A DNA stretch of 64,000 nt from Eledone cirrhosa (lineage: Eukaryota): contig OZ024742.1 in the NCBI GenBank assembly GCA_964016885.1, positions 290,656,001 to 290,720,000 on the forward strand, given 5' to 3'. Both the position numbers and the translations under genes were made by a program. Position 1 is the first letter of the stretch. The number at the start of each line of letters is the position of its first letter. The notes beneath the pieces are model-generated. The model saw only the letters and a list, made by a program, of their open reading frames with translations. It did not search any database and had not been told where the DNA came from. Positions 23,242 to 63,983 of the stretch are shown piece after piece.

Positions 23242-23366
23242 GAGGGACTCCATCAAAGACAACTGTTCCTGATTCACAACAAAAACATTTGTCTCCTAGC
23301 ACCAATCTGGAATATTCAAAAAATATTGATATTAAAGTAATGCTTGATTCAATTTCGAATGTCTCT
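23242..23366 (+). CDS. Host exon, linker plus macrodomain N-terminus (repeat B): GGTPSKTTVPDSQQKHLSPSTNLEYSKNIDIKVMLDSISNVS
   Basis: TTTTCAG acceptor, GTGAGT donor, 125 bp, phase 1->0. Joins VDVIVNST at the position of the usual GDIT...DVIVN. Confidence 0.85.
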
Positions 23367-24322
23367 GTGAGTAAACAAATTTGTATCAAATATTTAAATT
23401 TACTTATTCTATTTCAAATAATAAACTATTTATGTTGACTGAAACAGTAAAATGCAACCTCTAAATTTTCTTCATATAACACTGTCAATCTTTTTAACCA
23501 TTTTTCTACCAAACCAGCTGAAACTAGCCCTGGTTGTATGATACAAAACTATTGGTTTTTCAAGCAATTATATTTATCTAAAAACCTTCCACCATATTTT
23601 ATGCATAACCCTTAATTAAGAAACACCAGTTTAATAATCCCTTCTTTTTACTCCTTTTGTCCTTATATCTGCTTTGTGTGTATTGTGGAAGGAGATAACA
23701 GTGAATGATATGTTTCTAGGTCATGTGATTAGAAGCTATATCAGACTATTGGTGATGGTCAATGTGACATTCTTGAAGGGATTTCTTCATAGAATCCTTG
23801 TATCTTTCTTAATGTAATTACATTAATGACACCAGTCTTCCAATACTCTATATATGAGTCTAATAATACTAACATAATTATTACCTCCTCTTACTCCTTC
23901 TCATTATCATCATCATTTAGCATCTATTTTCCCTGCTTAGGTTGGACGGGTTGTCACAGACTAAGTATGTACTTAATTGATGCCATTAACCTTTCAGACA
24001 AGCTGGGAAACTAAATCTTGCTTACATACATTCCCGCATTGGGTGTCTTATTTTGGGACAGCAATAAAGAGGTTGCATGTCTTTGACATGACTAATAAAT
24101 CCTCTTGACCCTTTGTTTAGTAATTTCTTTTTTTCAGCTTGATACCCTTTCTTTCACCAACCCGTTCACAGAATATACCGTATGCATTTTATCAAGCCAC
24201 TAATACTACAGAGATTGATCTGTCATTGACACAACTGACGAGTCCTTTTGACACATAACAACAATATGTAATTATTTTCAGTGTCCAAATTTCTTAGCTG
24301 TTACCCTAATTTACTCTTGTAG

Positions 24323-24550
24323 GTTGATGTTATTGTTAACAGCACCAATAAAGAACTCAATCTTAATTCTGGTGGTATCTCCAAATTTATTTTGCAAACT
24401 GCTGGTCCACAGATACAAGAAGAGTGCAATGCAAATTATCCTCAAGGTATTTCTACATCTACAATAGCCGTCACAAAGGGCTATAACCTGAAATGTGAAT
24501 ATGTATTTCATGTTTATTTACCTAGATGGGATAAAGATAAAGCTGATGAA
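24323..24550 (+). CDS. Host exon, macrodomain middle part (repeat B)
   Basis: 228 bp, AG/GTAAGT, nearly identical to 7177-7404 (LPRW vs LPEW). Confidence 0.9.
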
Positions 24551-24638
24551 GTAAGTATCAATTAAATACCATATCATCACCATCATCAACGTCTCCACCA
24601 CCACCATTGACATTATTGCCATCATTATTTTCCATTCA

Positions 24639-24827
24639 TTTGGGCGGTGGATTAGCAGTATCGGTAGAGAGTCGGACGCCATGCTTTCCAGCATAGTTAC
24701 GTCCCTTTACGGTCTGAGTTCAAATCCCGCCGACGTTAACTTCGTCTTTCATCCTATGGGATCGATAAAATAAAGTACCAGTAATGTACTGGGTAATTTA
24801 CTGGTCTTGTGCCAAAAGTAGCAACAG
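24639..24827 (+). mobile_element. tRNA-derived SINE (second family; core CTTTCATCCT.CGGGGTCGATAAAATAAAGTACCAG)
   Basis: B box GAGTTCAAATCCC. 14-bp TSD TTATTTTCCATTCA (24625-24638/24828-24841). Absent at the paralogous sites ~7500 and ~56045. Confidence 0.88.
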
Positions 24828-25639
24828 TTATTTTCCATTCACTTTCTATGTTGACATAGGCTGGTCAGATTGTCAGGGTTTGAGCTTTAAGAATCTCTTC
24901 AACAAACATAACACTAGATGACTGGTTACCAAAGTAAGTTTTCTAGGTTGTCTCCATTGATTTTTTAGAAAACCAGAATTAGTCCTTTAGTTTACATATT
25001 GAGACACCAAACCATCGTATTCATTCTATAATGTATGGGATTTCTAGTAATGAATTTTTTCTTGCCATGTATAATGTTTTTAATGTCTAAAGAAAATTAA
25101 TTGTCGCAGGAATGCTACCACTTAAAATAAAATTTCACCAGGGATAGATTATGAAAATTTAATAAGCAGGGGATTGGAAAAAATCTGAAAAATTAATAAG
25201 TGGTGGGGATTGATTATTTGAGACACCTGAGAATATATGAATTAAATGTATACAAACTACAAGACAGATGAACACGTAATCATAAATTTGCATCACACCA
25301 AACCATAAATTAACAGTTACAATGTACTAAAATGAATAAACTCCTTATTAACAGTATACAAACCTAGAAATGAATAACACGATTTATTCATTTGGTTACA
25401 AAAATGTAAGTTATAAACTTCATGAAAGCAACTGTTACATTGGCCATTAATGTGTAACACACACATGAATGCTCACCATGCATTTACAAGGAGAAATAGC
25501 AGCACACTACACCACACACCATAAAATAAAGCTGGATAGGAGAACATTAATGAGAATACATCTGTATTATAGAGGATTCTAAACAAAAAAAAAAAAACAT
25601 TTAATCATGGAGGAGATCAGTATACATCATCATCATCAT

Positions 25640-26747: not shown

Positions 26748-28133
26748 TTGTTGGTTACTGCCTTGTTGGGACTTGCTGTACTGTTGGTTACTGCCTTGTT
26801 GGGACTTGCTGTACTGTTGGTTACTGCCTTGTTGGGACTTGCTGTACTGTTGGTTACTGCCTTGTTGGAACTTGCTGTACTGTTGGTTACTGCCTTGTTG
26901 GGACTTGCTGTATTGTTGGTTACTGCCTTGTTGGAACTTGCTGTACTGTTGGTTACTGCCTTGTTGGGACTTGCTGTATTGTTGGTTACTGCCTTGTTGG
27001 AACTTGTTGTACTGTTGGTTGCCTTGTTGGGACTTGCTGTACTGTTGGTTACTGCCTTGTTGGAACTTGCTGTACTGTTGGTTACTGCCTTGTTGGGACT
27101 TGCTGTATTGTTGGTTACTGCCTTGTTGGGACTTGCTGTACTGTTGGTTACTGCCTTGTTGGTTACTGCCTTGTTGGGACTTGCTGTACTGTTGGTTACT
27201 GCCTTGTTGGGACTTGCTGTACTGTTGGTTACTGCCTTGTTGGGACTTGCTGTACTGTTGGTTACTGCCTTGTTGGGACTTGCTGTATTGTTGGTTACTG
27301 CCTTGTTGGAACTTGCTGTACTGTTGGTTACTGCCTTGTTGGGACTTGCTGTATTGTTGGTTACTGCCTTGTTGGAACTTGCTGTACTGTTGGTTACTGC
27401 CTTGTTGGGACTTGCTGTACTGTTGGTTACTGCCTTGTTGGGACTTGCTGTACTGTTGGTTACTGCCTTGTTGGGACTTGTTGTACTGTTGGTTACTGCC
27501 TTGTTGGAACTTGCTGTACTGTTGGTTACTGCCTTGTTGGAACTTGCTGTACTGTTGGTTACTGCCTTGTTGGGACTTGCTGTACTGTTGGTTACTGCCT
27601 TGTTGGAACTTGCTGTACTGTTGGTTACTGCCTTGTTGGGACTTGCTGTATTGTTGGTTACTGCCTTGTTGGGACTTGCTGTACTGTTGGTTACTGCCTT
27701 GTTGGAACTTGCTGTACTGTTGGTTATTGCCTTGTTGGGACTTGCTGTACTGTTGGTTACTGCCTTGTTGGAACTTGCTGTACTGTTGGTTACTGCCTTG
27801 TTGGGACTTGCTGTATTGTTGGTTACTGCCTTGTTGGGACTTGCTGTACTGTTGGTTACTGCCTTGTTGGGACTTGCTGTACTGTTGGTTACTGCCTTGT
27901 TGGGACTTGCTGTACTGTTGGTTACTGCCTTGTTGGGACTTGCTGTACTGTTGGTTACTGCCTTGTTGGGACTTGCTGTACTGTTGGTTACTGCCTTATT
28001 GGAACTTGCTGTACTGTTGGTTCCTGCCTTGTTGGGACTTGCTGTACTGTTGGTTACTGCCTTGTTGGGACTTGCTGTACTGTTGGTTACTGCCTTGTTG
28101 GTTACTGCCTTGTTGGTTACTACCTTGTTGGGA
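26748..28133. repeat. 30-bp minisatellite, ~46 units, TTGTTGG(G/A)ACTTGCTGTA(C/T)TGTTGGTTACTGCC
   Basis: Directly visible; stop-free in several frames, which explains the spurious ORFs. Confidence 0.97.
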
Positions 28134-28896: not shown

Positions 28897-29124
28897 ATTT
28901 TGATGAGCTTAAACAATATAATACTCACTTGTCTACAAACTGCTGAGGAAAGGGGAGCCAAAAGCATTGCATTCCCTATATTAGGGGCAGGAATCTTGAA
29001 ATACCCTCTTGGTGAACTACCTTCAACCATGTATGATGCCGTGAAAACATACTCACATAGTAATACAAGGCAGATTGATGTTGTCAACTTTGTTATTTTA
29101 CCTACAGATTCAAACTTAATAGAG
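28897..29124 (+). CDS. Host exon, macrodomain C-terminal part (repeat B): ILMSLNNIILTCLQTAEERGAKSIAFPILGAGILKYP...ILPTDSNLIE
   Basis: TTTTAG acceptor, GTTGGT donor, 228 bp, phase 0-0. Confidence 0.9.
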
Positions 29125-29749: not shown

Positions 29750-31184
29750 TAGCAATGTACATATGATGAAGCAAGTAAAGTGTGCCTCTAAACAAGTCTA
29801 GTCTTTGTGGGTCTGAGAAAATTACCAAATTGGTGACAGGTGCAAATAATATCACCAAAAAGTGCACCACGCCAAGCTTCTTTCACCCACAGCATTTAAA
29901 AGCTGAAGCAGAAACTGCTCAGCTGAACAAGTTCTACATTGTTTCAATGTCCTCAGTTTTCTCAGGGAGTTCTCTGAATTTGGATACAATAGTGTCTGCA
30001 TACCTGGTCCTGACTTTCTTATCCACCAACGCTTCCCACTTTATCTTGTTGGTCACTCTGGACCTGCCAGTTTTGTGGGCTTATTTGGCTTTAGGTAGTC
30101 TCAAGCTGTAGATAAATAGATGAAGACCAGTTGACAGCTCAGCCCCTCTCTTAACACAAATTTCCAGTACTGAATCGAAGAGATCAGAGACAATAACAAA
30201 ATCACTTATTGATCTCTGTCCCTGATTCCCCTTATACCATGTATATTTATGGATGTTTCTGTGCTGGAAGAAGGTGTTTATAATAGAGAGTCCATTGCTA
30301 AAACAGAAGTCTAATAAGGCCTCTCCATTCATATATAGGTAGGGATTACCGATCCTTCCAATCATTCCTTTCCATGTCGGGTGGTCTGTGCTAACATGTG
30401 CATTGAAGTCTCCCATTAGGATATATGACTCAGTCTTAACTAGATCTTACGCTGCAGTGACTTCATCAAGGAAGGATCTGTATTTGGACTCTTTGTTCAG
30501 TGCATAAACTTGCACCACCCACAAAAACCTATCTTTCAGCCTAAGTTTCAAGAGTCAAATCCTCTCACCTAATGATGTCCAGTCTATAACACATTCTGAC
30601 AGTCGGGGGGCTGTGAGTATCCCCACTGCTGCCTGTGCAGTCATTTCTAGTGTCATACCTGAATAGTGGAGTTTCCATTTTCTATCCAAATCTTCAGTAC
30701 CAGATCCACGGAACTTGTTGAGGAAACCCAAACTATATATAGCTGGAAGCATCTAAACCCCTCCACTAGTTCCTGCTCCTTACCTGTAAGGATTGTGATG
30801 CTCCAGGTTCCAATTGTCAAGGTTTGTTCCCTTCCAAACCATCTTTGATGTCTCGAGATATGCAATCGTTATGCGTAAATCCCATGCCTCCCAGGACAGG
30901 CCGTAAGCTCATTACCAGTTTTTACAGCAAGAAATAGAGACTGCAATATATTTTTTGAACAGGTCCCTCTACTTAAGGCCCGAATGTGTCCCTTATTAAT
31001 TCATGTGAAGGATAATATTGCAGTTTTGGTGGTTTTATTCCTGCCAGTCACCAATCTGGTACTTTCTCAGACCCATGAAGACTAGGCTTTTTTAGAGGTG
31101 GCATTTTCATAGCTACATCACTGGGTTGTGAAAGATTTCTTGGGAACTAAAGGTATCACCCGCTACTTCATCTCCCTTAGTAAT
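29750..31184 (-). mobile_element. Degenerate RTE-type LINE 5' part (APE endonuclease), interrupted by LTR element 2; uninterrupted paralog ~61420-62960
   Basis: MGDFNAHV and NTFFQHRNIHKYTW (ORF 30081..30416); LTIGTW. Confidence 0.8.
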
Positions 31185-31479
31185 TGTAGTTAGAAAAATC
31201 TATCTCACTTACCGCTTTTCACAGGCGCTGCTAAATTCCACTGCAGGTACTCATCTTCCACGTGCGACCGACTGCTTAACACCGGGAGCTGCCCAAAACT
31301 CGCGTCCACACCGTATGCTGGTCACCACTAGAGAGAAGCCCTCTCCTGGCCCTTCCGGTCGAGCATCCTTCCGGCCAAAACACCCTTCCGGTCGAGCACT
31401 CCCCCGCCTCCGGCCACCGCACGCCACACCATACCCACACGCCCCACTGATCTCAAGGATCAATTTCCCCCTCGTCCCT

Positions 31480-34400
31480 CTACATATGAAAGTCTGCCGT
31501 CCAGGTCGGTGGTCTACGACTTCGTTGCGATCTTCGTAGTATTGGGGCAGAGCTCTGGGTTTCCACCTCATCTTGGGTTTCCTCTTCCTCGGAGTCCGTC
31601 GACACAGTGATTCTTCTTACATCCATGACATGACCTGGTACCCCGTCCATGGACACATTGTTCTTTGAATTTACGGCCGTCACCGTTCCCCTTCCCCATT
31701 GAGATGTGCAACGTGGACCTGGGGGCTTAACCCAGACTTCTTTGCCCACCTGCACGAATGCACTCTCTCTCCCCACAGGCCGTTGTGGTGGCGTGCACGG
31801 GTGCCGCCACTCATATTTGAATACTGCTCTATGTGGCACCGATTCCTCGACCTGTCCAACCCGAGGGGACATATTGTACCAGAACACTGCCTCCATTGGT
31901 GAGATATGGCCCCGCTCCGCCATTGCCTTAATCGTCCGGTGGTGTCACTCCACGATTCCATTCCCGCTCGGCCTGTGCGCCGCTCTGAAGAAACGGTCCA
32001 CCTTCCATCCATCGAGCATCTCCCTCAGTGCCTCTGAGCGGAACGCTGTGCTGTTGTCAATCAGCAGTTCATCCACAGGGCCCCGCTCCAAGAACACCTC
32101 TCTCAATGCCCGAACGATTTCCTCGGCCGTTCCAGTCTTCATCTCCCTCCATATCGCCATTCGACCCGGTCCACAGTCGACCATCGAGAGGTACGTTCCC
32201 TGCCGGTAGTGCGTCACATCCACCGCTAATCGCTTCCAGTCGCGATCCACCGGGAGGCTTCCCGTTTCGTGTACACCCGGGGCGGGATCAATGGACTGAC
32301 ATCGGACGCAGCCTCTAACCACCCCCCGAACACTGTGTCTGCTAACGTCCGAGTCGATTCTCCTGGCTAGGAACAGGCTCCTATCCACCCCCATGTGGTG
32401 CATGTCATGCAACCCCTTCAGGTCTAACTCGGTCAGCCGACACACGGCAGCTATCTCATCCTCTACCTCCTCCGGCGCTTCCATCCAGGCTTTCTTCAGT
32501 CTAGTTAAGGTGTCCGCCCTATTTTTCTCTGAAGGCACGAACACTACGCTCAGCTTCAGGTCGAACTCGGTGGCCAGCTCTCCTAACGTTCCCAGGTGGC
32601 GCTTTATCAGCATCTCCGCCGTGCCTCTCGTTCGCATTCTCTTCTCACTGGTGAGCACTGATCTTACCCATCCGAGTACGGTAGCCGAGTCGGTGCGTAT
32701 CTCGATGGTGCACAGCCCCCACCGCAGGGCGAGGTTCACCCCTCTCAACACCGCGTCCAGCTCGGCCACATTGATGTGGCTGCAGTCCTTCTTTCTAAGC
32801 CAGGCTGCTTCCTCGACCTCAACACCTCCTATCTCCAACGTGACACCCAGCGCTATGCTGCTGGCATCGCACCATACGGTCCCGCTCCGTGATTTGGGAA
32901 CGTACCAGCGTCCCCGCACTGGGTCGTCGGCCTTCACCCTCCCCACGATCTCCTGCATCATGGCCACCGTTCTCTCTCCCACTCTGTCACTCCAATTCAC
33001 CCCTCCTGCTCGTCTCTTGACATAGCTGCATGCTGTCCGAAGCCACCCAGCGATCGGGTAGTGACCCACCAGCTTTCCACACACCGAGAAAAGCTCCCGC
33101 CTATTCATACTTGGGCCCAGTTCCGGAACTTCGTTTCCCCTCTGGAACACCGAAACGCCCGTCTTATCTCGCCGTAGCCTAAGTCCCAGCGCGGCTCCTC
33201 CCTCCAATGCTTCTGATGGCTTCGCAGTCAGTCCATACCTCCGCAAATGGCTCGTGACCTCTGCCGTCGACACCACCGACTCGTCCACTAGGATGTCGTC
33301 AATGTAGGAGTTAGTAGCCCTCTTTATCTTGTCGGCCCTCCCCAGAGCGGTCTTGAGGACCGCCGCCATGATCTTCGGTGCGGAGCTCAGCCCGAAACCA
33401 AGCCTGGTCAGGCAATATGTCCGGCCCTTATACCTAACCAGCTGATACCGCCAGAGCTTCTCATCTATATGCAACTGCAAGTAAGCCGACTTTAGATCCA
33501 CGATTGCTGAACCCCCGTCATGCGTCTCCACTCACGCAGGGTTTCCCCACAGACATCCGTGACCTCGCCACCCGTGTGGCATGACACGTGCTCGTTCAGC
33601 TCTCGATAGTCCAGCACCGGCCTCACCTTGCTCTTCGTGGGTTGCACCACCGTGATCAACGGCAATACTCCGCACTTCACCTCCTCCTTCCAGGGAAGCA
33701 GTATGCCCTCTTCGATCCATCTATCTACTTTTCGCTCGAACTCGCTCCTAGCGTTTCCCTTCAATGTGTGTTGATAGCAGCCCACTTTGGTCTTCAGTGT
33801 TGGTGGTTCTCCCTTCCAGTACCACTCAACAACCCATCGCTGCCCATCAAACACGGCCTTGAAGTCCTTGTCCTGTACAGTGTAAGCGGGGTATTCCTCC
33901 TCGTGGGCCTTCTGGTTCTCATGACGTGCACTTACAGCCCATACCGATGCAGCGGCGCCAAACGACACACCGACATTGTTCACCGTGACGCCCCCTAGAC
34001 GGCCAATCGCGTCCATGCCCATAACCACGCCGATCCCATCCACCACACTGTCTACCACGATGGCGGAAAGCCTTATCGTCCTTCCCCGTACCGCTATTTC
34101 CATCTCGCTGCGACCTCTGCATTCAATTTTCCTGCCGTCGACTGCCCTTACGCTGTTCTTCCCTCCCCACCTCTGCGCCACCCCCGCGGTCACCAGTGTC
34201 GTCGTACAGCCCGTATCCACGAGAGCTCGCTGTGGTTTCCCCCTCACGAAGACTTCCACCACGGGCAGCACCGATACTCGTAATAGGGCAACTACCGGCG
34301 CAGTAGTTCCCCTTGGATCGTTTCCCTGGTCACAGTTAGTAGCGATGTGGCCTGGTCGCTTACACCGATAGCAAATTATCTCCGGCTTCGACTCTCTACA

Positions 34401-35015
34401 GTCTCTAGTCATGTGCGGGCCGTGACACCTAAAACAGCGTCCCCTAAATTCTTGCGGACTGCCGCGTGCCGAGGTTGCCTCCATTTGACCATTTTGCTGC
34501 CAGGTGTCCTGAGCCTCCGTAGTCGCTATCGCCGCGACACTCTTTTTGGCATCTTCCGCTATGATCCGGGCTTGTTCCACCAGTGAACGCATTTCCATCT
34601 CCTTGTACCCCAGGACTTGCTGCAGTTTCACCGCTATGTCGTCCGGAAATCCATTGATGAATGCCAACCGCGCCGTGCGTTCGCATTCCGCCTGGTAACC
34701 TGCCAACATAGCCAACCGCCTTATTTCCGCTGCGAAAATGTCGACGCGCTCACCATTCCACCTGATTCTCGCCAGCTTAGCAAAAGCCGCCAACGGTCCC
34801 TCGGCGAATGCATCCATCAGTCGCCTCTCAATCTTCTGCACATCTCTTTGGCTGTGCTCGTCCAACTCAAGGAAGAGTACCAACGCGTCGCCCTCGAGGT
34901 ACAATGCAATGAGACCGGCCACGCCTTCTATCTTCTGCAAGCCTGCGACCAGCCGAACCTTCCGCAGCCAAGCGACATCACCTTCCCCGGTGAATGGCCT
35001 GATAGCTTCGTTCAT
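31480..35015 (-). pseudogene. gag-pol polyprotein of LTR element 2; one frameshift near 33515 and one premature stop near 31945
   Basis: Two CCHC knuckles, LVDTG protease, DLKSAYLQ/FGLSSAP/YIDD RT, CDAS/AEL/TDS/ADTL RNase H, HHCC plus DDE integrase. Confidence 0.92.
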
Positions 35016-35056
35016 CTGTTTTCTTTTTTTTTTTTTTTTTTTTTTTTTTATCAGTC

Positions 35057-35068
35057 GCCGAAATAGCT
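35057..35068 (-). promoter_or_regulatory. Putative primer-binding site AGCTATTTCGGC (complement of tRNA-Phe nt 1-12)
   Basis: Abuts the 5' LTR; identical to 4516-4527. Confidence 0.75.
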
Positions 35069-35981
35069 TGTAGTTAGAAAAAGCTATCTCACTTACCGCT
35101 TTTCACAGGCGCTGCTAAATTCCACTGCAGGTACTCCTCTTCCACGTGCGTCCGACTGCTTAACACCGGGAGCTGCCCAAAACTCGCGTCCACACCGTAT
35201 GCTGGTCACCACTAGAGAGAGGCCCTCTCCTGGCCCTTCCGGTCGAGCATCCTTCCGGCCAAAGACCCCTTCCGGTCGAGCACTCCCCCCGCCTCCAGCC
35301 ACCGCACGCCACACCATACCCACAGTAATTCACCACTGTTGGTCCAGGGGTTGTTTACTTGTCCAGCAGGTGCTCACTTATATCATAACTAACTAATATT
35401 ACTGTTGGCCGTATCGCTATTCCCCACCTATGACCTGTTCTCTAGCAGAACAGCTCTGCCAAAAAGTATAAGAGTAACAAATAAAAACCAAGAGAAATAT
35501 TAATTTAAAACAATATTCATGGTTGAGTTAGAGCTAGTCTTTTAAATCTGTTTTTCCCTGTTTTGCATGGTTTGGACAGAGCCTGGAGCTTATCCCAGTT
35601 ACTTGGGCATTAAACTAAGGGTACTTATGTTTAGCTAAATCAACTGGAACAGCATGAAATGAAGTGCCTTGCTGGTCTGAACATTGAACCCAAGGTCTTT
35701 ACATTCACAATAGAAATAATACATAATTAAAACATTTTATTGTAATTTATTGATAAATATAACAATTAATTTGAAATGTAGTCATTCCAATGCATGTGAC
35801 TCTAATAATAGCTGACCACTGTAGATAATAGTTTAAAAAATTAGGTACAATACCCCTGGAGATGGAAAAAAGTGGACAGCGGTGCTTGCGAGGAATTAAA
35901 CCCTAAACCAGGCAAGTGTATTATTCACTGTTAAACCAATAAGTCTCTGACCACTGACTGCTGTCTTTTAGAAGCATTTAA

Positions 35982-36202: not shown

Positions 36203-36422
36203 TTAAACTTGTATCTAGAAGTGGTTGACTTGAAACATTGGGAACATTTTAAATATGAAATATTGTTCTATTTATAGTGATCAACTACTATTTTAATCAT
36301 CTGCATTGGGACAACTACATTTTAAATTTCAAACTTTCCCAATGTATCTTAAGTCAACCAGAAGATAACAATTAATGTTTCCATGGAATTATAACATGAA
36401 AGTCTTTGGTTATTTCTAACAG

Positions 36423-36471
36423 GTATTTCAAGAATATTTCCAAGAAATACAGACAACTGAAACATCATCAG
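36423..36471 (+). CDS. Host exon, end of macrodomain B: VFQEYFQEIQTTETSS
   Basis: TCTAACAG acceptor, GTAAAC donor, 49 bp, phase 0->1; joins 29124 and 40111 in frame. Confidence 0.8.
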
Positions 36472-36689
36472 GTAAACACACAATATTTTATTCACAGATG
36501 TATAAATAACATTAAAAATTGTTCACAATTCTTTCAGAATGAAAATATAACACATATAATAAATACAATTAACTATTGCTAGGAACCTCACAATGCACCA
36601 AAATATATGGTGAAAGCAAGAGAAAGAGGGGGGAAAAAGTAAAGAAAAGAGGGTGGGATATCTCTGATGACACTGCAGCTTTATGATTC

Positions 36690-37890
36690 TTCATCTCCTT
36701 GATTGCTTCTTTGACCCTATAACTATCAACCTCAATAGCTGGTCCTTCTTTTGGGTAAGTAAGGGGTAGTCTTTCCTCTTCCCATTAATTCTCTACATTC
36801 ATCAGTCTCTCATAGTAACATTTCCAGGCCTCTTTCTTTTGAACATTAATGATGCTAAGTGCATGAGAGTAATTTTTAATACACTTTTCCCCAGCTACAT
36901 CCTGATTCACACTGACACACTGCCTTGTGATATGGTACACTTCTCGTCTCTGGTCCTCACATCACAAGACATCGACAAACTTTCTTTTTTCAGCCTTTCT
37001 TTCAGCTCCGTATACCTGTCATCTATCTTCTCCCTTACCTACCTGGTACCGGTCTCTGATATCCCCATTTTTCCAGTATTTCCATGCCTGTTTCTTGGCT
37101 TTAATGGCTCTATCCACTGTGCTTTTCCACCACCAGGTCACCCTCTGTCTAGCTGGTGAAAAGGTTGTCACGCAAGATATCTGATTGTTGTCTATGTTAT
37201 ATGTATCTGGCTTGTCAATCCTCTCATCGAATGCATCTCATAGGGCCTTTCCAAACCTGCCATGTAACATTGCATTTTGCATGCAGGCATCACATAGTCA
37301 TCCCATCACTCTGAAAGAGCAGCCATTTATTGCCAGCAATGGCAGCAACTACCTGAACTTCTTCCAGCCTGTTCTTACTTTGGCTATAAAACTTTCAGAG
37401 CATCCACCTACACTACTAATGTGATCTCCTAGATAGCATAAGCTGTCTATCATTTCCAGCAAACCTTCTGAACATCTAATAGGGTTTATCTCTTGAGTAT
37501 TCTTACTGTTAACTATTCCTACACATCTACCACTCACAAAGCCTGACCTTCCCATCAGTCTATCGGTGGTTCCACTACCTCTCGTAGGTGTCCAGTTTAC
37601 ACTGGATACAAAGTATGGAATTACTACTCCACCTCCCTTTTCTACACATTGAGCATGGTCATTCCCTGATAGTAGCAGAGTCTTATCTTTTTTTCTTACT
37701 AAAACTTCAGTTTTTGAGGTCATTTGATTCCAGATTTTGCTTCTATGTCTGGAACTTCCTTTCTAGTTCTTCTATCATTTCAGCTATGATGGCACAGAGG
37801 AGCTACCATGCATAACCAGTCTTGAATACCTCTGTTATAGCCTAAAGGACTATAATAAACAAGAGGGAACTGATGACTGGGCCTTGGCAA
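36690..37890 (-). mobile_element. Degenerate RTE fragments
   Basis: RVTWWWK and YLGDHISSVGGCSES..RTGWKKFR remnants. Confidence 0.8.
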
Positions 37891-37994
37891 GCCCTGTGTA
37901 TGTTATCATACTTTTATGTAAGACTCTTTGTTAATTCCAAATACCAGTTAAATAATGAGAAAATTAGTTGTATTACTAAATTGCATTATTTTCA

Positions 37995-48459: not shown

Positions 48460-49344
48460 TTAAAGTGTGATTTGTGGGAGATTCTGCAGCTGTTTCTTGG
48501 AGATGAATCAACAAGCATGTGGAATGGCCCTTTGTTGGTTTTGACAATGAGTATTCCAGGTATTTGATCACTAGGCTAGCATGCAGGTGGTTGAGCATTT
48601 CATTGATATGTTTACCTTTAACATAATTCTTGGGAAGATTCAATGTGACACAATATGTAATATGGCTGGCCATCCCATAAGTTTCCAAACAGTTTCTGTC
48701 TACTTAATTTCCCTCGCCTGGCTTGGCCCAAGGCTATGGTAAATGATACTTGCTCAAGATGTCATGCAGTGAGATTTATCCTGAGACCTAATGATTTCAA
48801 ATCAAACTATTTAACCATATGGTCATGCTGTATCAACATGCAACCATATAATGGCTCTGTCATTGGCCTTGTAATATATTTTATTAGCCATTCTTACCAT
48901 ATGATACTGTTTAGAAACTGATAAAATTACCAGTCTTTGTTTGACCATAGAGTCATAACTAACAAGTTTATGGGACAAACACCTGCTGATGACTATGTGT
49001 GAGTCCTATTTGCTTATGTAGTTACTGTGGATGTGCCGTTATATATAACCACATGTACAGTTGGTGTGTATTAAAAACTACTATGGACCAGGTAAACATG
49101 TTTCTTTTTCCCCTGGGTATTTGTTAATGACTCCTGCAGGAGGTTCACGTGTCTATGCTATTTGTTCGTGTTCCTTTCTAATTTGAATAATGAATTGCCA
49201 CTCAAAAACAATGAATTGCCACTCAAAAACAATGAATTTATTTCCTGTACGATTTAGTATTGATATTTGTCTGTCTATCTCTATTGATCTGTCTATCTAT
49301 ATTGATCTGTCTGTCTGTCCACCTATTGGTTGATTAATAGATAG

Positions 49345-51288
49345 ATTTCTTTATTTACCATAAAGGCATAAAAAGAAGGGACAAATACAAAGGGGGAGTT
49401 TACATATAATCGAGTAAAAAGGGTGTAACATGAAAATAATCGAAAATAACCTCAAAAGGGAGGGGACGTGATGGGGGTTGCACACACCCCCGAAAAAGTG
49501 TGCAATCCTTTGCCCGGGGAGCACATGGAGAAGGTGCTCCCCTCTCCTTTACTTCTTTACCTACAGGATGGTATACAGAGAAGGCCCATTTACACGAGCC
49601 ATTCTCGCCACTATCACCCACCTTTCATAAAACTGCCTGTGGCCAAGCACCTCTCTCTCCATTCTTATCCTTCTTCCGAAGTGATATCGGAAGAAGTAGA
49701 CCAGACTATGGCCAGAGAGGAAGTTGCCTGACCTCAGACCTTTCAATCGTGTCCACCAAACAACCTCTTTCAACATGGCTATTACGCACAGAAAAATCGC
49801 CTTTGCTTCCTTTGTGAAGAGGGGAGGCGGTTTGATTGTCATCACGGACCCGGCGGTCAATTTAATCGGCGCCACCCGCGACAGCAGTTGTTCGGCGTAC
49901 CCCCACAGATCAGCCACGCCAGGACATTGCACCAATGCGTGCGCCACGGTTTCTTCGTGACGCACGCATCTAGGGCAAATCTTTTTTGAGGGATCCCTGC
50001 CCGGGCGCCCGTGTCTGTAGAGCCTCTCTCGAACGGGTAGAGCCCCTCGGTAGCACTGCCAGGCCAGTGACTTCTGGAAGTTGTCCATTGGTCCTGGGCC
50101 GAAAGTCCTACCGAACAGGCTGGCCAGTTCGTCTTCTTCCATGTCCAGCGACTCTCCAAGGGTGTCATCGCCCCTGCTAGCCACCAGCCCTCTATAGAAT
50201 GATGAGGTGGATTCTCCACCGATGGCCCGGCCCGCTTGCCAGAGAGCCCTGAGCGCCTGAGCACACTCAGTGTGCCAGTCTCCCAGTTTTCCGGATCTTT
50301 GCTTGACCCAGGACTGTAGCTCGGTGAGTGAGACGAGTCTCGGAAAGGCTCGTTTCACGAACGGAGCCCACACCGGTTGACCAGTGAGGAATACCTGTAG
50401 GTGCCGTAGCCTTAATGCGTGCCTACGCATCATCAACCACGGCATCCCCAGCCCTCCTTTCGAAGGTTGTTGGCAGCAGATGGATCTTCTCACCATAGGA
50501 GGACGCTTCTTCCAAAGAAATTGGAAGAGCATGCGTTCCATGGTGGTGAGTGTTTCCTTAGGGCAAGGCACGACAGTCAGGCGGTAGTAAGTGACGGACG
50601 CTATGTAAATGTTCGCCACCTCCGCCCGGCCTTTTAGGGACAGCTTACACTTGGCCCATTTCTGGGTTAGTGCAAACACCTTGTTCGTAACCTCGTTCCA
50701 GTTCTTTTCCACCTGGAGGTCCGGTCCAAACCAGACCCCAAGCAACTTTACCGGGCCCTCCGTCCAGTGTCCGACGACACCGTCAGGAGGCATCGGTTTG
50801 CCTCTCCACGTTCCGAGTTGCAGCCCGATGGATTTTTCCCGGTTCAGTTTCGCTCCTGACAACCTTTCGTACTCCTCCAGTAAGGTACCGATCGCCTCGA
50901 TCTCCGAGTCGGTTGATACCATTACTGTTACGTCATCGGCGTAGGCCGACACCGCTTTGCTCAATCCTGGTTCCAGGGGGATACCCTGCAACAACTCCAA
51001 CTTCCTCAGTAAGGGCTCGAGAGTCAATACGTACAGAAGGGAGGAGAGAGGGCACCCCTGTCGAATGGATCGTGTGATTTCGAACGGCTTCGAAAGGTAG
51101 CCGTTCACCTTGATCCTAGAACAGATGTGGTTGCTATGTAGGGCAGTGATCCAGCCTCTGAAAACAGGACCGAACCCAGCCGCCGCTAGCACCGCATCCA
51201 GGTAACCATGGTCGACCCTATCAAAGGCCTTAGACTGATCCAAGTTGATCAGGGCCCCACCGAAGCCGGGTTTGTTGCCAACCCTCTC
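49345..51288 (-). mobile_element. Tx1/L1-clade non-LTR retrotransposon, 5'-truncated, open RT-to-end ORF (49561..51243)
   Basis: DQSKAFDRV, RQGCPLS, YADD and a C-terminal CPRC..EETVAHALVQC zinc motif. The 3' end lies in a GATA-type repeat. Confidence 0.93.
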
Positions 51289-52638
51289 TATTTACCACAA
51301 GGGCGCACAAGAAAAGGGGACAATACAAAGACACATGCCGGGGATTTTACATACAGTCGTGTAAAAAAAACAAAAAAACAAACAAACAATTATAACAATC
51401 GAAATCCCCAATAGGGGGGAGACGCCACAAATGGGTTGTTTAATACCCCATCGATAGAACAACCCTCAACTTCAGGAGCATGTTGTGCAAGTGCTCCTTT
51501 CTTTAACCTACAAGCTTATAATGAGAAGGCCCAATCACTCGGGCCATTTTCGCTTCATTCACCCACCTTTCAGTAAATTTACTCAGGTGCAGTGCCTCTC
51601 TCTCCACTCTGATTCTTTTTCTAAAGTGATACTTAAAGAAGGGAATCAAATGTTGTCCAGAGAGAAAGGCATCTGTCCTCAGTCCTCTCAATCTCATCCA
51701 CCATATAACTTCTTTCACCATAGTCACTGTACAGAGGAAAACTGCCTCTCTTTCGTTTTTGAAAGAGGCTGGCGGTTTGATGCTTACTATGGACTTGGCA
51801 GTCAACTGGATTTATCCCATACGCAACAGCAGTTGTTTTGCATAGTTCCACAGGTCGCTTACGCCCGGGCAGTGTACAATTGCGTGCAAGACGGTTTCAA
51901 TGTCCTGCTTGCATCTTGGACACGTCCTCTTGGAAGGATCCCTGCCGAGGTGTCCGTGCCTGTAGATCTTATCTCGAACGGGTAGAGCTCCTCGGTAGCA
52001 CTGCCAGGCCAGGTACCTTTGGAAGTGGTCCATAGGTCCCGGGCGGAAAGTCCTACCGAACAGACTGGTGAGCTCGTCGTCTTCGACGCCTAGAGTCTCC
52101 CCGAGCACATCGTCGCAGTCGTAAAGTACCAACCCTCTATAGAATGTCGAAGTGGAGTCTCCACTGATTGCTGTGCCCGCTTGACAGAGGACTGTGAGCG
52201 CCTGGGCACATTCAATGTGCCAGGCGCCTATCTTCTTCGATCTTCGCTTGACCCAGAACTGCAGCTCCGTCAGCGAGACAAGTTGTGGGAAGGCCTGTCT
52301 CACAAACGGTGCCCACACCGGTTGGTCGGTGAGGTATACCTGGAGATGCCGTAGCTTCAGCGCATGATTAGCCATGGCATTCCCAGCTCTCCGTTGGAAG
52401 GGTGTTGACAGCAGACGGATCTCCTCAGCAGTGGAGCCTGCTTCTTCCACAGGAACTGGAAGAGCATGCGTTCCATCTTGGTGAGGTATTCACGGAGACA
52501 AGGCACGACATTCAAGCGGAAGTAGATGACGGACGCTATGAAAGTGTTCGCCACCTCCGCTCGACCTTTCAAAGACAGTTTGCACACTGCCCACTTCTGG
52601 GTGAGCGCAAATACCTTGGCCATGACCTCATTCCAGTA
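51289..52638 (-). mobile_element. Second related Tx1/L1-clade element, 5'-truncated and degenerate, fused to the first
   Basis: ORFs 52357..52674, 51812..52450 and 51503..51805 parallel the ORF2 C-terminus of the first element. Same 3' terminus motif (TATTTACCA.AA.GGC on +). Abuts (TAGA)n at 52637. Confidence 0.9.
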
Positions 52639-52784
52639 GATAGATAGATAGATGGATAGACAGATAATGTACACACACGCTCACACACAGATAATGAACA
52701 CACTCGCACACACACCCATACATAATATTATTCTGCCATGTCAGTACCAGCCTTGTAAAATATTATTTTTGTGTTTATTTTCAG

Positions 52785-52909
52785 GAGGGACTCCATCAAA
52801 GACAACTGTTCCTGATTCACAACAAAAACATTTGTCTCCTAGCACCAATCTGGTATATTCAAAATATATTGATATCAAAATAATGCTTGATTCAATTTCT
52901 AATGTCTCT
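52785..52909 (+). CDS. Host exon, linker plus macrodomain N-terminus (repeat C)
   Basis: 125 bp, AG/GTGAGT, phase 1->0; 5 substitutions relative to 23242-23366. Confidence 0.82.
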
Positions 52910-53177
52910 GTGAGTAAACAAATTTGTATCAAATATTTAAATTTATTTATTCTATTTCAAATAATAAACTATTTATGTTGACTGAAACAGTAAAATGCAA
53001 CCTCTAAATTTTCTTCATATAACACTGGCAATCTTTTAAACCGTTTTTCTACCAAACCAGCTGAAACTAGCCCTGGTTGTATGATACAAAACTATTGGTT
53101 TTTCAAGCAATTATATTTATCTAAAAACCTTCCACCATATTTTATGCATAAACCTTAATTAAGAAACACCAGTTTAA

Positions 53178-55028
53178 CCCTTTAGCATTCATATATATAA
53201 ATATAAATATTCTTTACAATATTGTCAGACAATCTTCCTATCATGATATTGGCCAATACAGCCTTTACATAATGGCACTTTGCAAAATCAATATTTCTTT
53301 GTTCACCTCAGATAATTTTGACTTTCTCCCAGCTTTGTGTTTGCGAGAATTACATCCTCCACGCAGCTGAGATGCGACATCCACACAAAATTTCATGTGG
53401 CAGTAGTCCTTTGGTGGTGGCGGATCCTTGTGGCTTTTAGTGAATACAATAAAAGAATTCACAATGGTTAAATTCACTAAAAACCACAAGATATATCTCC
53501 ACCATTTCTTCCCAGGGCGTCCAACTGGGTAATATGTGCAATATTGATCGGATTTGTCAACCCCGCCCATACATTTATTATAGGAGCGGTTGACTAAAGG
53601 TTTACTTTCAGCCCCAACTCCTGGTTGTTGGTTAGAAGCAAAATTTGCCGTTTGTCTTTGTACAATGTGGCTAACATGTTCCCTTTTTGCACTTGGAGAG
53701 TGTGCCCTCTCTTTTTAAATTTTGTGATTTTTATTTCTTGGGGTAGCCCTTTGCGATTCCCCATTATTGTACCGCAGGTGTACGTATTTACGAGGGAAGA
53801 ACCTCTGCTAGAAGCACTAAAGAAAAAAAACGGTCAAAATATATGTCTGTGTTGAGAGTGGAATGGTTCAGTCAGAGACCACACAACATCGTACCCCAAT
53901 CTATTTTTTCTCTCTCCGTTGTGTTTCTTTCCTGTGTAAACATCAAAGTTTGCACAGTAGCCTGTGTCCGATTCACAGAGTTTCCACACCTTGATGCCCC
54001 ATTTGGTGGGTTTAGTTGGCATATATTGTCTGAAATGTACTCTACCCTTATACCCAATCATAGCTTCACCAACACTAAGATTTTTCCCAGGTATATATAC
54101 TGTTTTAAATTTTTCACATAGTATTTTAATTAATGGTTGAACTTTATAAAGAGGGTCATAATTCAATTCATTTCTATCGGGGACATTTGAAGTATCAACC
54201 AGATGCAAATACTGGTTTAATTTTAAATACCTTGTTTTTGCCATAATACTTGATATATAAGGGTCACTAAACCTTATATCAGTGCTCCAGTAATTCTATA
54301 GTCTTGGAAATTGTTTTATACCAAACATAATATTTATGGTAAAAAACGCTTGCATCTCCGCAGCATCTGTCAGTCGCCATAACAGATCGGGTTTTCTTCG
54401 ATTTGAAATTTGTTGTTGGGCATATCAATTAGTTTCTTTTGCCACAACTTTGAAGAAAGTTTGTGGCAAAAACAAAAAGAAATAATCCAGTGCTTTAGCA
54501 TCAGGAGGTAATGTGTGTTGTGGACCAGTATTTTCAATAAAATCGGGAACATGTATAGGTGTGGTATTTGTCGACCACGTTGCTGTAATATCTTCAATGA
54601 CATCCTGGAGATCTCCTTTGTTTTCACTTTCAAAACAACAATCATCGTCGGATGAAATTTCAGAAATGTAAACATCTGATTGATTTGAGGATAAATCACT
54701 AATATTATCTTTTGTTTCATCGTGTGTAAAACCTTCAAAGTCGGTATCGCTACTTTCACAAGCCATGTTGATACACACAAAAAAATCTGTTCTACTTTCA
54801 ACGTTAAAAAAACACGTGTTGTTTCAAGTTGTTTCACTATGTTAAGTGTTAATTTTTGCAATAAGGGTCTAATCTCGCAGTAATCTCGAATTGATGAGAT
54901 TTTGATGACGTATTGTTTATTTTTAGAACAATATTTTAGTGTGAGTGTTATTGGCCATTTTGGGCCGGATTGAACTAATGAAGAGGAAATAATTGCGGCC
55001 GGTTTGGGCTGGTTTGAACACTAAAGGG
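53178..55028 (-). mobile_element. piggyBac-family transposon (1851 bp) with both ends; transposase pseudogene
   Basis: TTAA TSDs at 53174-53177 and 55029-55032. 14-bp imperfect TIR CCCTTTAG(CA/TG)TTCA. Motifs QYMPTKPTKWGIKVW and MGGVDKSDQ. Empty site TTAA at 23631-23634. Confidence 0.96.
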
Positions 55029-55721
55029 TTAATAATCTCTTCTTTTTACTCCTTTTGTCCTTAATATCTGCTTTGTGTGTATTGTGGAAGGAGATAACAG
55101 TGAATGATATGTTTCTAGGTCATGTGATTATAATCTATATCAGACTATTGGTGATGGTCAATGTGACATTCTTGAAGGGATTTCTTCATAGAATCCTTGT
55201 ATCTTTCTTAATGTAATTACATTAATGACACCAGTCTTCCAATACTCTATATATGAGTCTAATAATACTAACATAATTATTACCTCCTCTTACTCCTTCT
55301 CATTATCATCATCATTTAGCATCTATTTTCCCTGCTTAGGTTGGACGGGTTGTCACAGACTAAGTATGTACTTAATTGATGCCATTAACCTTTCAGACAA
55401 GCTGGGAAACTAAATCTTGCTTACATACATTCCCGCATTGGGTGTCTTATTTTGGGACAGCAATAAAGAGGTTGCATGTCTTTGACATGACTAATAAATC
55501 CTCTTGACCCTTTGTTTAGTAATTTCTTTTTTTCAGCTTGATACCCTTTCTTTCACCAACCCGTTCACAGAATATACCGTATGCATTTTATCAAGCCACT
55601 AATACTACAGAGATTGATCTGTCATTGACACAACTGACGAGTCCTTTTGACACATAACAACAATATGTAATTATTTTCAGTGTCCAAATTTCTTAGCTGT
55701 TACCCTAATTTACTCTTGTAG

Positions 55722-55949
55722 GTTGATGTTATTGTTAACAGCACCAATAAAGAACTCAATCTTAATTCTGGTGGTATCTCCAAATTTATTTTGCAAACTG
55801 CTGGTCCACAGATACAAGAAGAGTGCAATGCAAATTATCCTCAAGGTATTTCTACATCTACAATAGCCGTCACAAAGGGCTATAACCTGAAATGTGAATA
55901 TGTATTTCATGTTTGTTTACCTAGATGGGATAAAGATAAAGCTGATGAA
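55722..55949 (+). CDS. Host exon, macrodomain middle part (repeat C)
   Basis: 228 bp, AG/GTAAGT; HVCL versus HVYL in A/B. Confidence 0.88.
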
Positions 55950-56136
55950 GTAAGTATCAATTAAATACCATATCATCACCATCATCAACGTCTCCACCAC
56001 CACTACCACCCCCACCACCAACACCATTGTCATTATTGCCATCATTATTTTCCATTCACTTTCTATGTTGACATAAGTTGGACAGATTGTCAGGGTTTGA
56101 GCTTTAAGAATCTCTTCAACAAACCTAACACTAGAT

Positions 56137-58803: not shown

Positions 58804-59799
58804 TTGTTGGTTACTGCCTTGTTGGGACTTGCTGTACTGTTGGTTACTGCCTTGTTGGGACTTGCTGTACTGTTGGTTACTGCCTTGTTGGGACTTGCTG
58901 TACTGTTGGTTACTGCCTTGTTGGAACTTGCTGTACTGTTGGTTACTGCCTTGTTGGGACTTGCTGTACTGTTGGTTACTGCCTTGTTGGAACTTGCTGT
59001 ACTGTTGGTTACTGCCTTGTTGGAACTTGCTGTACTGTTGGTTACTGCCTTGTTGGGACTTGCTGTACTGTTGGTTACTGCCTTGTTGGAACTTGCTGTA
59101 CTGTTGGTTACTGCCTTGTTGGGACTTGCTGTACTGTTGGTTACTGCCTTGTTGGGACTTGCTGTACTGTTGGTTACTGCCTTGTTGGAACTTGTTGTAC
59201 TGTTGGTTACTGCCTTGTTGGGACTTGCTGTACTGTTGGTTACTGCCTTGTTGGGAGTTGCTGTACTGTTGGTTACTGCCTTGTTGGGACTTGCTGTACT
59301 GTTGGTTACTGCCTTGTTGGGACTTGCTGTACTGTTGGTTACTGCCTTGTTGGGACTTGCTGTACTGTTGGTTACTGCCTTGTTGGGACTTGCTGTACTG
59401 TTGGTTACTGCCTTGTTGGAACTTGCTGTACTGTTGGTTACTGCCTTGTTGGGACTTGCTGTACTGTTGGTTACTGCCTTGTTGGGACTTGCTGTACTGT
59501 TGGTTACTGCCTTGTTGGGACTTGCTGTACTGTTGGTTACTGCCTTGTTGGGACTTGCTGTACTGTTGGTTACTGCCTTGTTGGAACTTGCTGTACTGTT
59601 GGTTACTGCCTTGTTGGGACTTGCTGTACTGTTGGTTACTGCCTTGTTGGGACTTGCTGTACTGTTGGTTACTGCCTTGTTGGAACTTGCTGTACTGTTG
59701 GTTACTGCCTTGTTGGAACTTGCTGTACTGTTGGTTACTGCCTTGTTGGGACTTGCTGTACTGTTGGTTACTGCCTTGTTGGTTACTACCTTGTTGGGA
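58804..59799. repeat. 30-bp minisatellite, ~33 units (paralog of 26748-28133)
   Basis: Same unit and flanks, different copy number and variant order. Confidence 0.97.
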
Positions 59800-60788: not shown

Positions 60789-61419
60789 GTTGGTTGATTT
60801 ATCTTGTTTTTATTGTATTTTTGATTCTCTTGATATTCTTAATTCTTTTTCTTTTTATAATATGTTGTAACCATAGTTACTATTATTAGATTGCAGTCAT
60901 GGTTATAGAAATTAGACTATGCCCATGGTTACAGTTATTAAATTGTAGCCATGGTTAGTTATTCAACTAGTTATGTTTACAGTTTTTGAATTGGCCATTG
61001 TTACAATCATTAGACTGCTGCCATGCTTGGGCACCACTTTAAACAGATTTAGTACTTATCTATGTTGCTCAAGGGTTGGATGAATCAGTACGGTCTAAAA
61101 CTAGACCACATTTTGACTAATAAATTCCATGGCTAGATACACTTCTTAATGTCACCCACCTTATAGAGTGTATTGGATGCATTTTATTATGGCACCATCA
61201 TTTTATATATTTACATATATTTCTTGGTAGAGGTATTCTGATTGAGAATGGCTCACACGTGGCAGATAGTGATATGACCACTAGATATGATGGTTAGTTG
61301 AGGCATAAGTGGGTTTCTGTTGAATGAATAAGCAACACCGGATCAAACAGTATTAAGCTACTAGGGAGATGGAATAAAGGGTAACACTGTTAGCTTTCAA
61401 ATAAACTTTTTACAAGTTA

Positions 61420-62960
61420 GCAATGTACATATGATGAAGCAAGTAAAGGGTGCCTCTAAACAAGTCTAGTCTTTGTGGGTCTGAGAAAATTACCAAATTG
61501 GTGACAGGTGCAAATAAGATCACCAAAAAGTGCACCACGCCAAGCTTCTTTCACCCACAGCATTTAAAAGTTGAAGCAGAAATTGCTCAGCTGAACAAGT
61601 TCTATATTGTTTCAATGTCCTCAGTTTTCTCAGGGAGTTCTCTGAATTTGGATACAATAGTGTCTGCATACCTGGTCCTGACTTTCTTATCCACCAACGC
61701 TTCCCACTTTATCTTGTTGGTCACCCTGGACCTGCCAGTGTTGTGGGCTTATTTGGCTTTAGGTAGTCTCAAGCTGTAGATAAATAGATGATGACCAGTT
61801 GACAGCTCAGCTCCTCTCTTAACACAAATTTCCAGTACTGAATCGAAGAGATCAGAGGCAATAACAAAATCAATTGATCTCTGTCCCTGATTCCCCTTAT
61901 ACCATGTAGATTTATGGATGTTTCTGTGCTGGAAGAAGGTGTTTATAATAGAGAGTCCATTGCTAAAACAAAATCTAATAAGGCCTCTCCATTCATATAT
62001 AGGTTGGGATTACCGATCCTTCCAATCATTCCTTTCCATGTCGGGTGGTCTGTGCTAACATGTGCATTGAAGTCTCCCATTAGGATATATGACTTAGTCT
62101 TAACTAGATCTTACGCTGCAATGACTTCATCAAGGAAGGATCTGTATTTGGACTCTTTGTTCAGTGCATAAACTTGCACCACCCACAAAACCCTATCTTT
62201 CAGCCTAAGCTTCAAGAGTCAAATCCTCTCACCTAATGATGTCCAGTCTATAACACATTCTGACAGTCGGGGGGCTGTGAGTATTCCCACTTCTGCCTGT
62301 GCAGTCATTTCTGGTGTCATATCTGAATAGTGGAGTTTCCATTCTCTATCCAAATCTTCAGTACCAGATCCACGGAACTTGTTGAGGAAACCCAAACTAT
62401 ATATAGCTGGAAGCATCTAAACCCCTCCACTAGTTCCTGCTCCTTACCTGTAAGGATTGTGATGCTCCAGGTTCCAGTTGTCAAGGTTTGTTCCCTTCCA
62501 AACCATCTTTGATGTCTCGAGATATGCAATTGCTATGCGTCTATCCCATGCCTCCCAGGACAGGCTGTAAGCTCATTACCAGTTTTTACAGCATGAAATA
62601 GAGACTGCAATATATTTTTTGAACAGGTCCCTCTACTTAAGGCCCGAATGTGTCCCTTATTAATTCATGTGAAGGATAATATTGCAGTTTTGGTGGTTTT
62701 ATTCCTGCCAGTCACCAATCTGGTACTTTCTCAGACCCATGAAGACTAGGCATTTTTAGAGGTGACATTTTCATAGCTACATCACTGGGTTGTGAAAGAT
62801 TTCTTGGGAACTAAAGGTATCACCCATTACTTCATCTCCCTTAGTAATTCACCACTGTTGGTCCAGGGGTTGTTTACTTGTCCAGCAGGTGCTCACTTAT
62901 ATCATAACTAACTAATATTACTGTTGGCCGTATCGCTATTCCCCACCTATGACCTGTTCT
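61420..62960 (-). mobile_element. Degenerate RTE-type LINE 5' part, containing the empty site for LTR element 2
   Basis: Collinear with 29750-31184 plus 35330-35450; single GTAAT at 62844-62848. Confidence 0.8.
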
Positions 62961-63500
62961 CTAGCAGAACAGCTCTGCCAAAAAGTATAAGAGTAACAAA
63001 TAAAAACCAAGAGAAATATTAATTTAAAACAATATTCATGGTTGAGTTAGAGCTAGTCTTTTAAATCTGTTTTTCCCTGTTTTGCATGGTTTGGACAGAG
63101 CCTGGAGCTTATCCCAGTTACTTGGGCATTAAACTAAGGGTACTTATGTTTAGCTAAATCAACTGGAACAGCATGAAATGAAGTGCCTTGCTGGTCTGAA
63201 CATTGAACCCAAGGTCTTTACATTCACAATAGAAATAATACATAATTAAAACATTTTATTGTAATTTATTGATAAATATAACAATTAATTTGAAATGTAG
63301 TCATCCCAATGCATGTGACTCTAATAATAGCTGACCACTGTAGATAATAGTTTAAAAAATTAGGTACAATACCCCTGGAGATGGAAAAAAGTGGACAGCG
63401 GTGCTTGCGAGGAATTAAACCCTAAACCAGGCAAGTGTATTATTCACTGTTATACCAATATGTCTCTGACCACTGACTGCTGTCTTTTAGAAGCATTTAA

Positions 63501-63721
63501 CCCTTTACTATTTACATTATTCTATATATACTATTGTATTTTCATGGTAAAGGCTTTACCTCACATAATTATCTCTCATAATATCGAATCTAAGAGATTT
63601 TGATATTATTTATGTTGAGAACAATACCTTAACATCAGTATGATCAACTGGTTACAATTGGCTTGAACTGAAAGATATGAGAGAATTTTGGCCAGATTTG
63701 GCTGGTTTAAATGCTAAAGGG
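63501..63721. mobile_element. 221-bp piggyBac-type MITE (paralog of 35982-36202)
   Basis: TTAA flanks and TIRs; same flanking sequence as the segment B copy. Confidence 0.85.
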
Positions 63722-63934
63722 TTAAACTTGAAGTGGTTGACTTGAAACATTGGGAACATTTTAAATATGAAATATTGTTCTATTTATAGTGATCAACTAC
63801 TATTTTAATCATCTGCATTGGGACAACTACATTTTAAATTTCAAACTTTGCCAATGTATCTTAAGTCAACCAGAAGATAACAATTAATGTTTCCATGGAA
63901 TTATAACATGAAAGTCTTTGGTTATTTCTAACAG

Positions 63935-63983
63935 GTATTTCAAGAATATTTCCAAGAAATACAGACAACTGAAACATCATCAG
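63935..63983 (+). CDS. Host exon VFQEYFQEIQTTETSS (repeat C)
   Basis: Matches 36423-36471 including splice sites. Confidence 0.8.

Follow-up and report, generated by a model that had tools for sequence, protein, structure and literature searches.

The window analyzed here, a stretch of 64,000 nucleotides (nt) from Eledone cirrhosa (assembly GCA_964016885.1, contig OZ024742.1, positions 290,656,001–290,720,000 of the forward strand), contains exons of a PARP14-like gene; all positions given are those of the window. Self-comparison of this intron-rich DNA reveals three related segments, A, B and C, that together hold 13 plus-strand exons, all bounded by AG and GT. A scripted join from the first of these (A2) to the last (C4) yields 783 codons with no stops and encodes the order macroA, macroB, KH-like/WWE, macroC. 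A macro module is built from four exons, namely a phase 1-0 linker, two phase 0-0 exons of 228 nt that each encode half of the macro domain, and a short phase 0-1 exon that closes the module. In segment B these are B1 (23242–23366; linker plus first macro strand, 37–55% to Octopus linkers), B2 (24323–24550; first half), B3 (28897–29124; second half) and the 49-nt B4 (36423–36471). They are followed by B5 (40111–40292; phase 1-0, ~50% to Octopus proteins) and B6 (42846–43209; phase 0-1), and the whole B unit, 1176 nt long, has phase 1 at both ends. Exon 1 of module A lies upstream of the window. A2 (7177–7404) shares 226 of 228 nt (99%) with B2, whereas A3 (10977–11204), an older paralog of B3, shares 196 of 228 (86%; dS 0.22, dN 0.14); the short A4 (17219–17306; phase 0-1), which closes the module, is recognized by a weak tblastn match, an acceptor homologous to that of B4 and an open frame. 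The exons of segment C are copies of those of B: C1 (52785–52909; phase 1-0, 120/125 nt identical), C2 (55722–55949; 227/228, with a C-specific site at 55915), C3 (60561–60788; 227/228) and C4 (63935–63983; 49/49). The sites that separate B from C are positions 70, 81, 92, 96 and 116 of exon 1, 194 of exon 2 and 139 of exon 3. The in-frame join up to phase 1 at 43209 and the phase-1 copy of the macro-start exon at 52785 as the next recognizable exon, both proposed in the original prediction, are borne out. The offset of ~29.5 kb given there for the duplicate applies to exon 1, and elsewhere varies between 27.5 and 32.1 kb because of insertions. The duplicate itself, described as macro plus WWE, is visible for exons 1 to 4; the likeness of B and C runs on to the window end, 17 nt past C4, and the second B5–B6 copy would lie beyond it, so that the WWE part of the duplicate is an extrapolation, though one with indirect support.

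Matches to the Pfam family PF01661 (Macro) were found on B2 (4.9e-14), B3 and A3. The top PDB matches are PARP14 structures (3vfq, 3q71, 5o2d), with PARP14 macro2 leading for B2, and the macro domains present, three in number, are related to PARP14; the top protein matches carry PARP14/15-like names, and the corresponding domain of the Octopus relative P0019 aligns to macro2. Loop 2 reads GAGILKYP in B3 and C3 and GSGELKYP in A3, compared with TGIFGIP in Octopus macro1. Because it lacks the hydrophobic-aromatic pair that is tied to hydrolase activity in PMC10221186 (in B3, the hydrolase-linked aromatic residue is missing), all three window macros are predicted from their sequence to be non-hydrolytic readers of the PARP14 macro2 type. 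They may bind ADP-ribose. Macro2 and macro3 bind modified proteins, according to PMC10470015 and PMC13224862.

In the structural model of B6, the N-terminal part is of low confidence and is followed by a long helix and by a WWE domain that is predicted with confidence. The Pfam WWE match falls under the cut-off (E 0.024), the best Foldseek match of the model is the PARP14 WWE 1x4r (E 3e-4), and WWE chains take VIA ranks 1–11 (Z 6.3–10.8); on the strength of the predicted fold, a WWE domain follows the macros. The KH-like half of the earlier label fared less well: residues 1–50 of the model have predicted local distance difference test (pLDDT) values of 44–67, and no KH chain appears among the fold matches listed. 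In human PARP14, half of a split KH and the following KH precede the WWE (PMC10450202), and B5 together with the start of B6 would correspond to these by position, B5 being the second half of the split KH plus the start of the next. Since the human PARP14 WWE appears devoid of poly(ADP-ribose) binding according to PMC10450202, the label of reader is uncertain for the WWE here.

No ADP-ribosyltransferase (ART) exon was found in the window. A tblastn search with 29 relatives gave no ART match, and a hidden Markov model built from 16 Octopus ART domains, together with four exon-sized sub-profiles, found none on either strand among 3562 six-frame pieces (best E 1.6–5.2), while control profiles built from Octopus alone recovered B5 (1e-15) and B6 (3e-38) in the same search. 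The claim that the 43.2–52.8 kb interval has no catalytic exon is in agreement with this, and ART does not directly follow WWE in the genome here, although it may still do so for the last copy or in skipped transcripts. RRM, N-terminal KH and macro1 exons were likewise not detected in the window, the N-terminal-region profile matching only the known macro exons. The spacer (43210–52784) has no ART, RRM, KH or macro exon and contains remnants of long and short interspersed nuclear elements (LINEs and SINEs). As both the ART and the N-terminal profiles are empty there, it contains no ART and no beginning of a full-length paralog, and a tandem array of full paralogs is unsupported. The N-terminal RRM/KH region and the hydrolase macro1 of the gene would lie upstream of position 1.

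Seven sequencing runs, none recorded as RNA, were considered; four (X1, X2, X4 and X5) were used over 36300–56100, and a restriction-site-associated DNA (RAD) run, X5, had no usable signal. Run X1 (88 million letters) contains a 645-nt contig that covers 40107–40292 and 42846–43209 without the intron, which confirms the B5–B6 splice; X1 is taken as RNA because of this. Its end coincides with the donor of the WWE exon at 43209. The contig is continuous across three donors and three acceptors, which argues against mere unspliced RNA, and because it does not break at the B4 donor, a B5-like exon would be expected after C4 too. A 297-nt contig on 55722–55914 ends one base before the site that separates C2 from A2 and B2, and a C2-type exon 2 is probably transcribed. 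The depth of X1 is 118 on exon 2 and 89 on B5–B6, nearer 3:2 than 2:1 or 3:1, a weak indication. X1 differs from the window at 40198, 40251 and 42898; two of these are A>G changes that are also present in the DNA runs, which rules out RNA editing as their source, and the A>T at 40198 is confined to X1. Mean depths in X2 and X4, from one sample, are 27–42 on B5 and B6, 29–49 on parts of the spacer, 47 on exon 1 and 62–63 on exon 2, with minor contigs at 7–8; these would fit several copies, contig depths being no copy number. The X2/X4 contigs depart from the window sequence by ~1% and carry indels, and the spacer is not bridged by any of them.

The ends of the X1 contigs were compared with simulated transcript sets (6 + 8, one repeated, hence 13 distinct), in which contig ends are taken as branches of the de Bruijn graph. 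The four target values were a length of 645, 0 nt past B6, 50 nt before B4, and an exon-2 end at position 193. All ends are matched by four of the 13 models: read-through from A and B through WWE into C, a second WWE and an unseen exon; the same read-through plus skipping; model S1, in which B ends in the intron and C is separately started; and model H2, in which B and C are alleles and the intron is read through. Each of the four requires, after a WWE exon, an unseen exon that does not start with G, in addition to a G-starting alternative (C1 or the intron); the non-G continuation is needed because C1 and the intron both start with G. A C-terminal ART in the same protein would provide such an exon: all 16 Octopus ART proteins that were parsed have E or D at the join, and an ART exon starting with A would fit this, provided that the intron position deduced from protein joins is conserved. 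Models in which C is silent, in which there is no second B5–B6 copy, or which contain only decoys all fail. The 50-nt overhang into B3 was predicted and matched; it follows from a single 31-mer common to A3 and B3 at position 178, supports the logic of the simulation independently and implies that A3 is transcribed.

The best reading of these data, to which we assign a probability of about 0.5, is a read-through gene of the form macro-macro-KH-WWE-macro-KH-WWE-ART, in which skipping may also occur. Its 3′ reader block, made up of the linker, the macro2-type domain, the short exon and the KH-like/WWE exons and in phase 1 at both ends, would have undergone tandem duplication through unequal exchange between linker exons that are paralogous, the copies now being homogenized by conversion. 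Some transcripts at least would continue past the first WWE exon and enter the copy, with an ART exon past the window as the end of the gene, giving (N-terminus)-macroA-macroB-KH-WWE-macroC-[KH-WWE-ART]; skipping of C would also stay in frame. The predicted protein is a mono-ADP-ribosyltransferase with extra non-catalytic ADP-ribose readers, which would raise its avidity for modified targets. The chances are roughly even that the gene is active and catalytically complete, activity being a prediction, with a recently repeated reader block. Slightly below even we place the fuller proposal of a single expressed PARP14-like protein that repeats the whole macro2-KH-WWE block before its catalytic domain, its copy number shifting by ongoing unequal exchange and its blocks optionally skipped.

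Several observations weigh against the read-through gene. The B6→C1 joint (43209→52785) is not among the 15 of 5203 joints listed, all of which lie in repeats; the confirmed B5–B6 joint is likewise absent from these, which deprives the absence of weight, and 24 of 13588 loose ends are listed. The accordion-like protein of the original prediction is the best fit, while the joint on which it turns is neither seen nor excluded. X1 is a single sample of presumed RNA, and the simulation was run without bubble and tip removal and with random stand-ins for unseen exons. Two of the four matching models need no read-through, and the unseen exon need not be an ART. In 36 Octopus proteins (isoforms counted apart), the B6-like segment occurs in 11, where it is followed by ART in 10, is incomplete in one and is never followed by a macro. 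The exons of B and C differ by five nonsynonymous and two synonymous changes, tiny counts that bear no sign of purifying selection; positive selection was not seen either, dN/dS being ~0.64 for A3/B3 and ~0.7 for B/C over few sites, neither above 1. By analogy with human PARP14 (PMC10450202), a second copy of just one half of the split KH would also lack the other half.

The sequences suggest that the segments arose through several rounds of unequal exchange and conversion between linker-exon paralogs, and not through one clean duplication. B and C differ in 108 of 7501 aligned columns (1.44%), with blocks ranging from 0.43% to 3.6%; the block-wise values were used, and a three-way count of informative sites was set aside owing to misalignment at 7514–7972. 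A Gypsy-type long terminal repeat (LTR) retrotransposon in B intron 3 (31184–35324, minus strand), with a 5-bp target duplication, is absent from C, and a piggyBac-like DNA transposon in C intron 1 (53177–55029, minus strand), which sits at a TTAA site, is common to A and absent from B. At 6197–6484 in A, an empty B-type version of the insertion site comes directly after the transposon end with its 27-nt flank, forming a 290-nt fold-back that is typical of unequal exchange or repair.

Among the alternatives, the one that survives best, at perhaps one chance in several, holds that there are two transcription units: A and B would read into the intron and encode an ART-less reader protein, and C, with its own leader in the spacer, would continue into KH-WWE-ART as a partial duplicate of the PARP15 type. 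Model S1 fits all contig ends, the frame of B6 extends 8 codons into the following intron to an in-frame stop at 43235, and a SINE-derived polyadenylation signal lies at 43406. Short Octopus models start with the linker exon or just ahead of it. The high identity of B and C starts ~80–140 nt before exon 1, and further upstream, across two LINE fragments, the two are only ~72% alike over 78 low-complexity bases (49268–49343 is 72% like the intron before B1); the acceptor of C1 would thus be older and may have belonged to another gene start. However, no MAE-type first exon was found in the spacer, and the two weak acceptor sites that pass a crude scan there are both within LINE remnants. The same AATAAA-bearing SINE family is present in the B2–B3, B4–B5 and B5–B6 introns, where it does not stop splicing, the B6 donor is strong, and none of the at least eight X1 pieces listed is a unique terminal exon.

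It is less probable again that B6 splices past C to a downstream ART, with C a separately started unit or a minor cassette and macro-macro-KH-WWE-ART the main protein. The phase (1-1) would be kept, and the arrangement is that of 10 of the 11 WWE-bearing relatives. In its pure form, however, skipping of C produces no branch at 43209 and a contig of 796 nt, and a second G-starting continuation, C1 or the intron, would be needed.

A misassembly in which both haplotypes of a single locus were set side by side, as B and C, is improbable. The heterozygosity of polymorphic marine animals can reach such levels, so that the divergence of 1.44% and the transposon indels are within the range of alleles; model H2 fits the contig ends, and the spacer is bridged by no contig. 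Against this, the window has no N, the upstream flank of C is not an allele of that of B (~72% over the 78 nt, otherwise unrelated), and A carries the C-type filled site directly followed by the B-type empty site, a sign of real exchange between copies. Spacer contigs in the DNA runs have depths similar to those of B5/B6 and below those of exon 2, with the same caveat on copy number, and alleles alone (model H1) give no branch at 43209. The reading in which all copies are ART-less decoys or reader-only proteins, raised in the original prediction, is the least probable of all: ART is missing from all 64 kb and a number of Octopus models carry macros but lack a PARP domain, though many of these look partial, but both decoy-only models miss the contig (646 and 836 nt compared with the 645 observed), and some transcripts continue from a WWE exon to an exon distinct from both C1 and the intron.

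Other repeats were observed in and around the exons. The Gypsy-type element has a second copy, 617–4385, which is 89% like 31189–35010 and interrupts the piggyBac-like element of A. A 33-nt minisatellite in macro intron 2 has ~42 copies in B (26749–28133) and ~30 in C (58805–59782), and a short diverged relic in A (10801–10899); it lies inside a LINE remnant, with several frames open. A 23-nt minisatellite of ~62 copies (9220–10616) is confined to A intron 2. An inverted-repeat element of ~240 nt in the A3–A4 intron (15694–15930), spotted by eye, is a possible miniature inverted-repeat transposable element. The spacer contains two 5′-truncated non-LTR elements (reverse transcriptase plus zf-RVT) at 49345–52637, 74% alike and placed head to tail in one AGAT microsatellite, which suggests a target-preferring family. 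This family is young and probably transcribed, because X1 contigs hold near-identical copies (0–2 differences over 494–841 nt).

If the read-through gene exists, the repeat unit would extend past the WWE domain, the reader valence of a PARP would be set by genomic and splicing accordion steps, and the locus would offer a natural series for how reader number alters ADP-ribose signaling. The basic picture of PARP biology would be unchanged, and the case adds a further variation within a gene family for which frequent duplication is established. MacroPARPs evolve rapidly and are antiviral genes; for octopods, such a role would be an analogy. In a metazoan survey, three different macros plus ART are taken as the ancestral macroPARP form, and molluscan macroPARPs are reported as PARP14-like (PMC10221186). 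The octopod route seems to differ, with exon modules that start and end in phase 1 being amplified and homogenized within each lineage.

A search with exon B2 matched 29 proteins among 53 candidates, nearly all of them PARP14/15-like and from Octopus sinensis and O. vulgaris, whereas a word search with B6 among longer proteins gave no match; an HMMER search returned three representatives, all from Octopus. Identity is 65–74% on exon 2 and 42–53% on the B5/B6 segments; the values for exon 2 and for B6 (42–48%) would put the source of the window within the octopods, outside the species matched. PARP14-like proteins of O. sinensis, O. vulgaris and O. bimaculoides (XP_036364520.1, XP_036364784.1, CAI9714770.1, XP_052829884.1) share the linker, the macro2 halves, B5 and B6 with the window. 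They resemble it in a variable number of macro2-type repeats (0–5 per protein in the 36), a KH-WWE pair that is present or absent, and numerous paralogs, which in each species sit mostly on a single large contig; some models pass directly from macro to ART. Phase symmetry, which the original prediction had stressed, is present in the window and is not special to it: Octopus relatives freely add and drop macro2 units and the KH-WWE pair. Phase-symmetric shuffling being the rule in the family, the macro after the WWE is therefore the unusual feature here. By contrast with the window, the WWE exon is single and leads into ART in 10 of the 11 Octopus proteins that have it (the other is cut short), and none, most of them being predicted models, has a macro after it. 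The window macros form a separate clade: in a tree built from 31 macro2 repeats, those of 14 of the Octopus proteins plus A, B and C, the three group together at 100/100, while near-identical repeat pairs occur inside single Octopus proteins. No macro3-like domain was noticed in the 36 proteins, and in the O. vulgaris model P0033 a KH-macro1 block is repeated. Macro repeats in Octopus are already in public gene models; no paper on octopod macro2 repeats or expansion, or on a repeated macro-WWE block, was found in a search outside which subscription journals lie, and File S1 of PMC10221186 may list octopod entries.

PARP14 duplicates often and locally, PARP9 and PARP15 being partial duplicates, as stated in PMC4038475, PMC4245714 and PMC13224862, and Aplysia has 17 PARP genes (PMC9334734). 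Human PARP14 and the window agree in the order macro2-like domain, KH-like stretch, long helix, WWE, but the human protein contains three different macros (macro1 a hydrolase, macro2 and macro3 readers) and one WWE that is directly followed by ART; in the window, macro2 is repeated, macro1 and macro3 are not in view, and a macro follows the WWE. PARP15 and other partial PARP14 duplicates likewise arose by tandem partial duplication of the 3′ macro-bearing part (PMC4038475, PMC4245714). PARP15, however, became independent of its parent, with an ART of its own and without a WWE, whereas the copy in the window is 98.6% identical to its parent, has exons through at least exon 4, and lies in frame with it.

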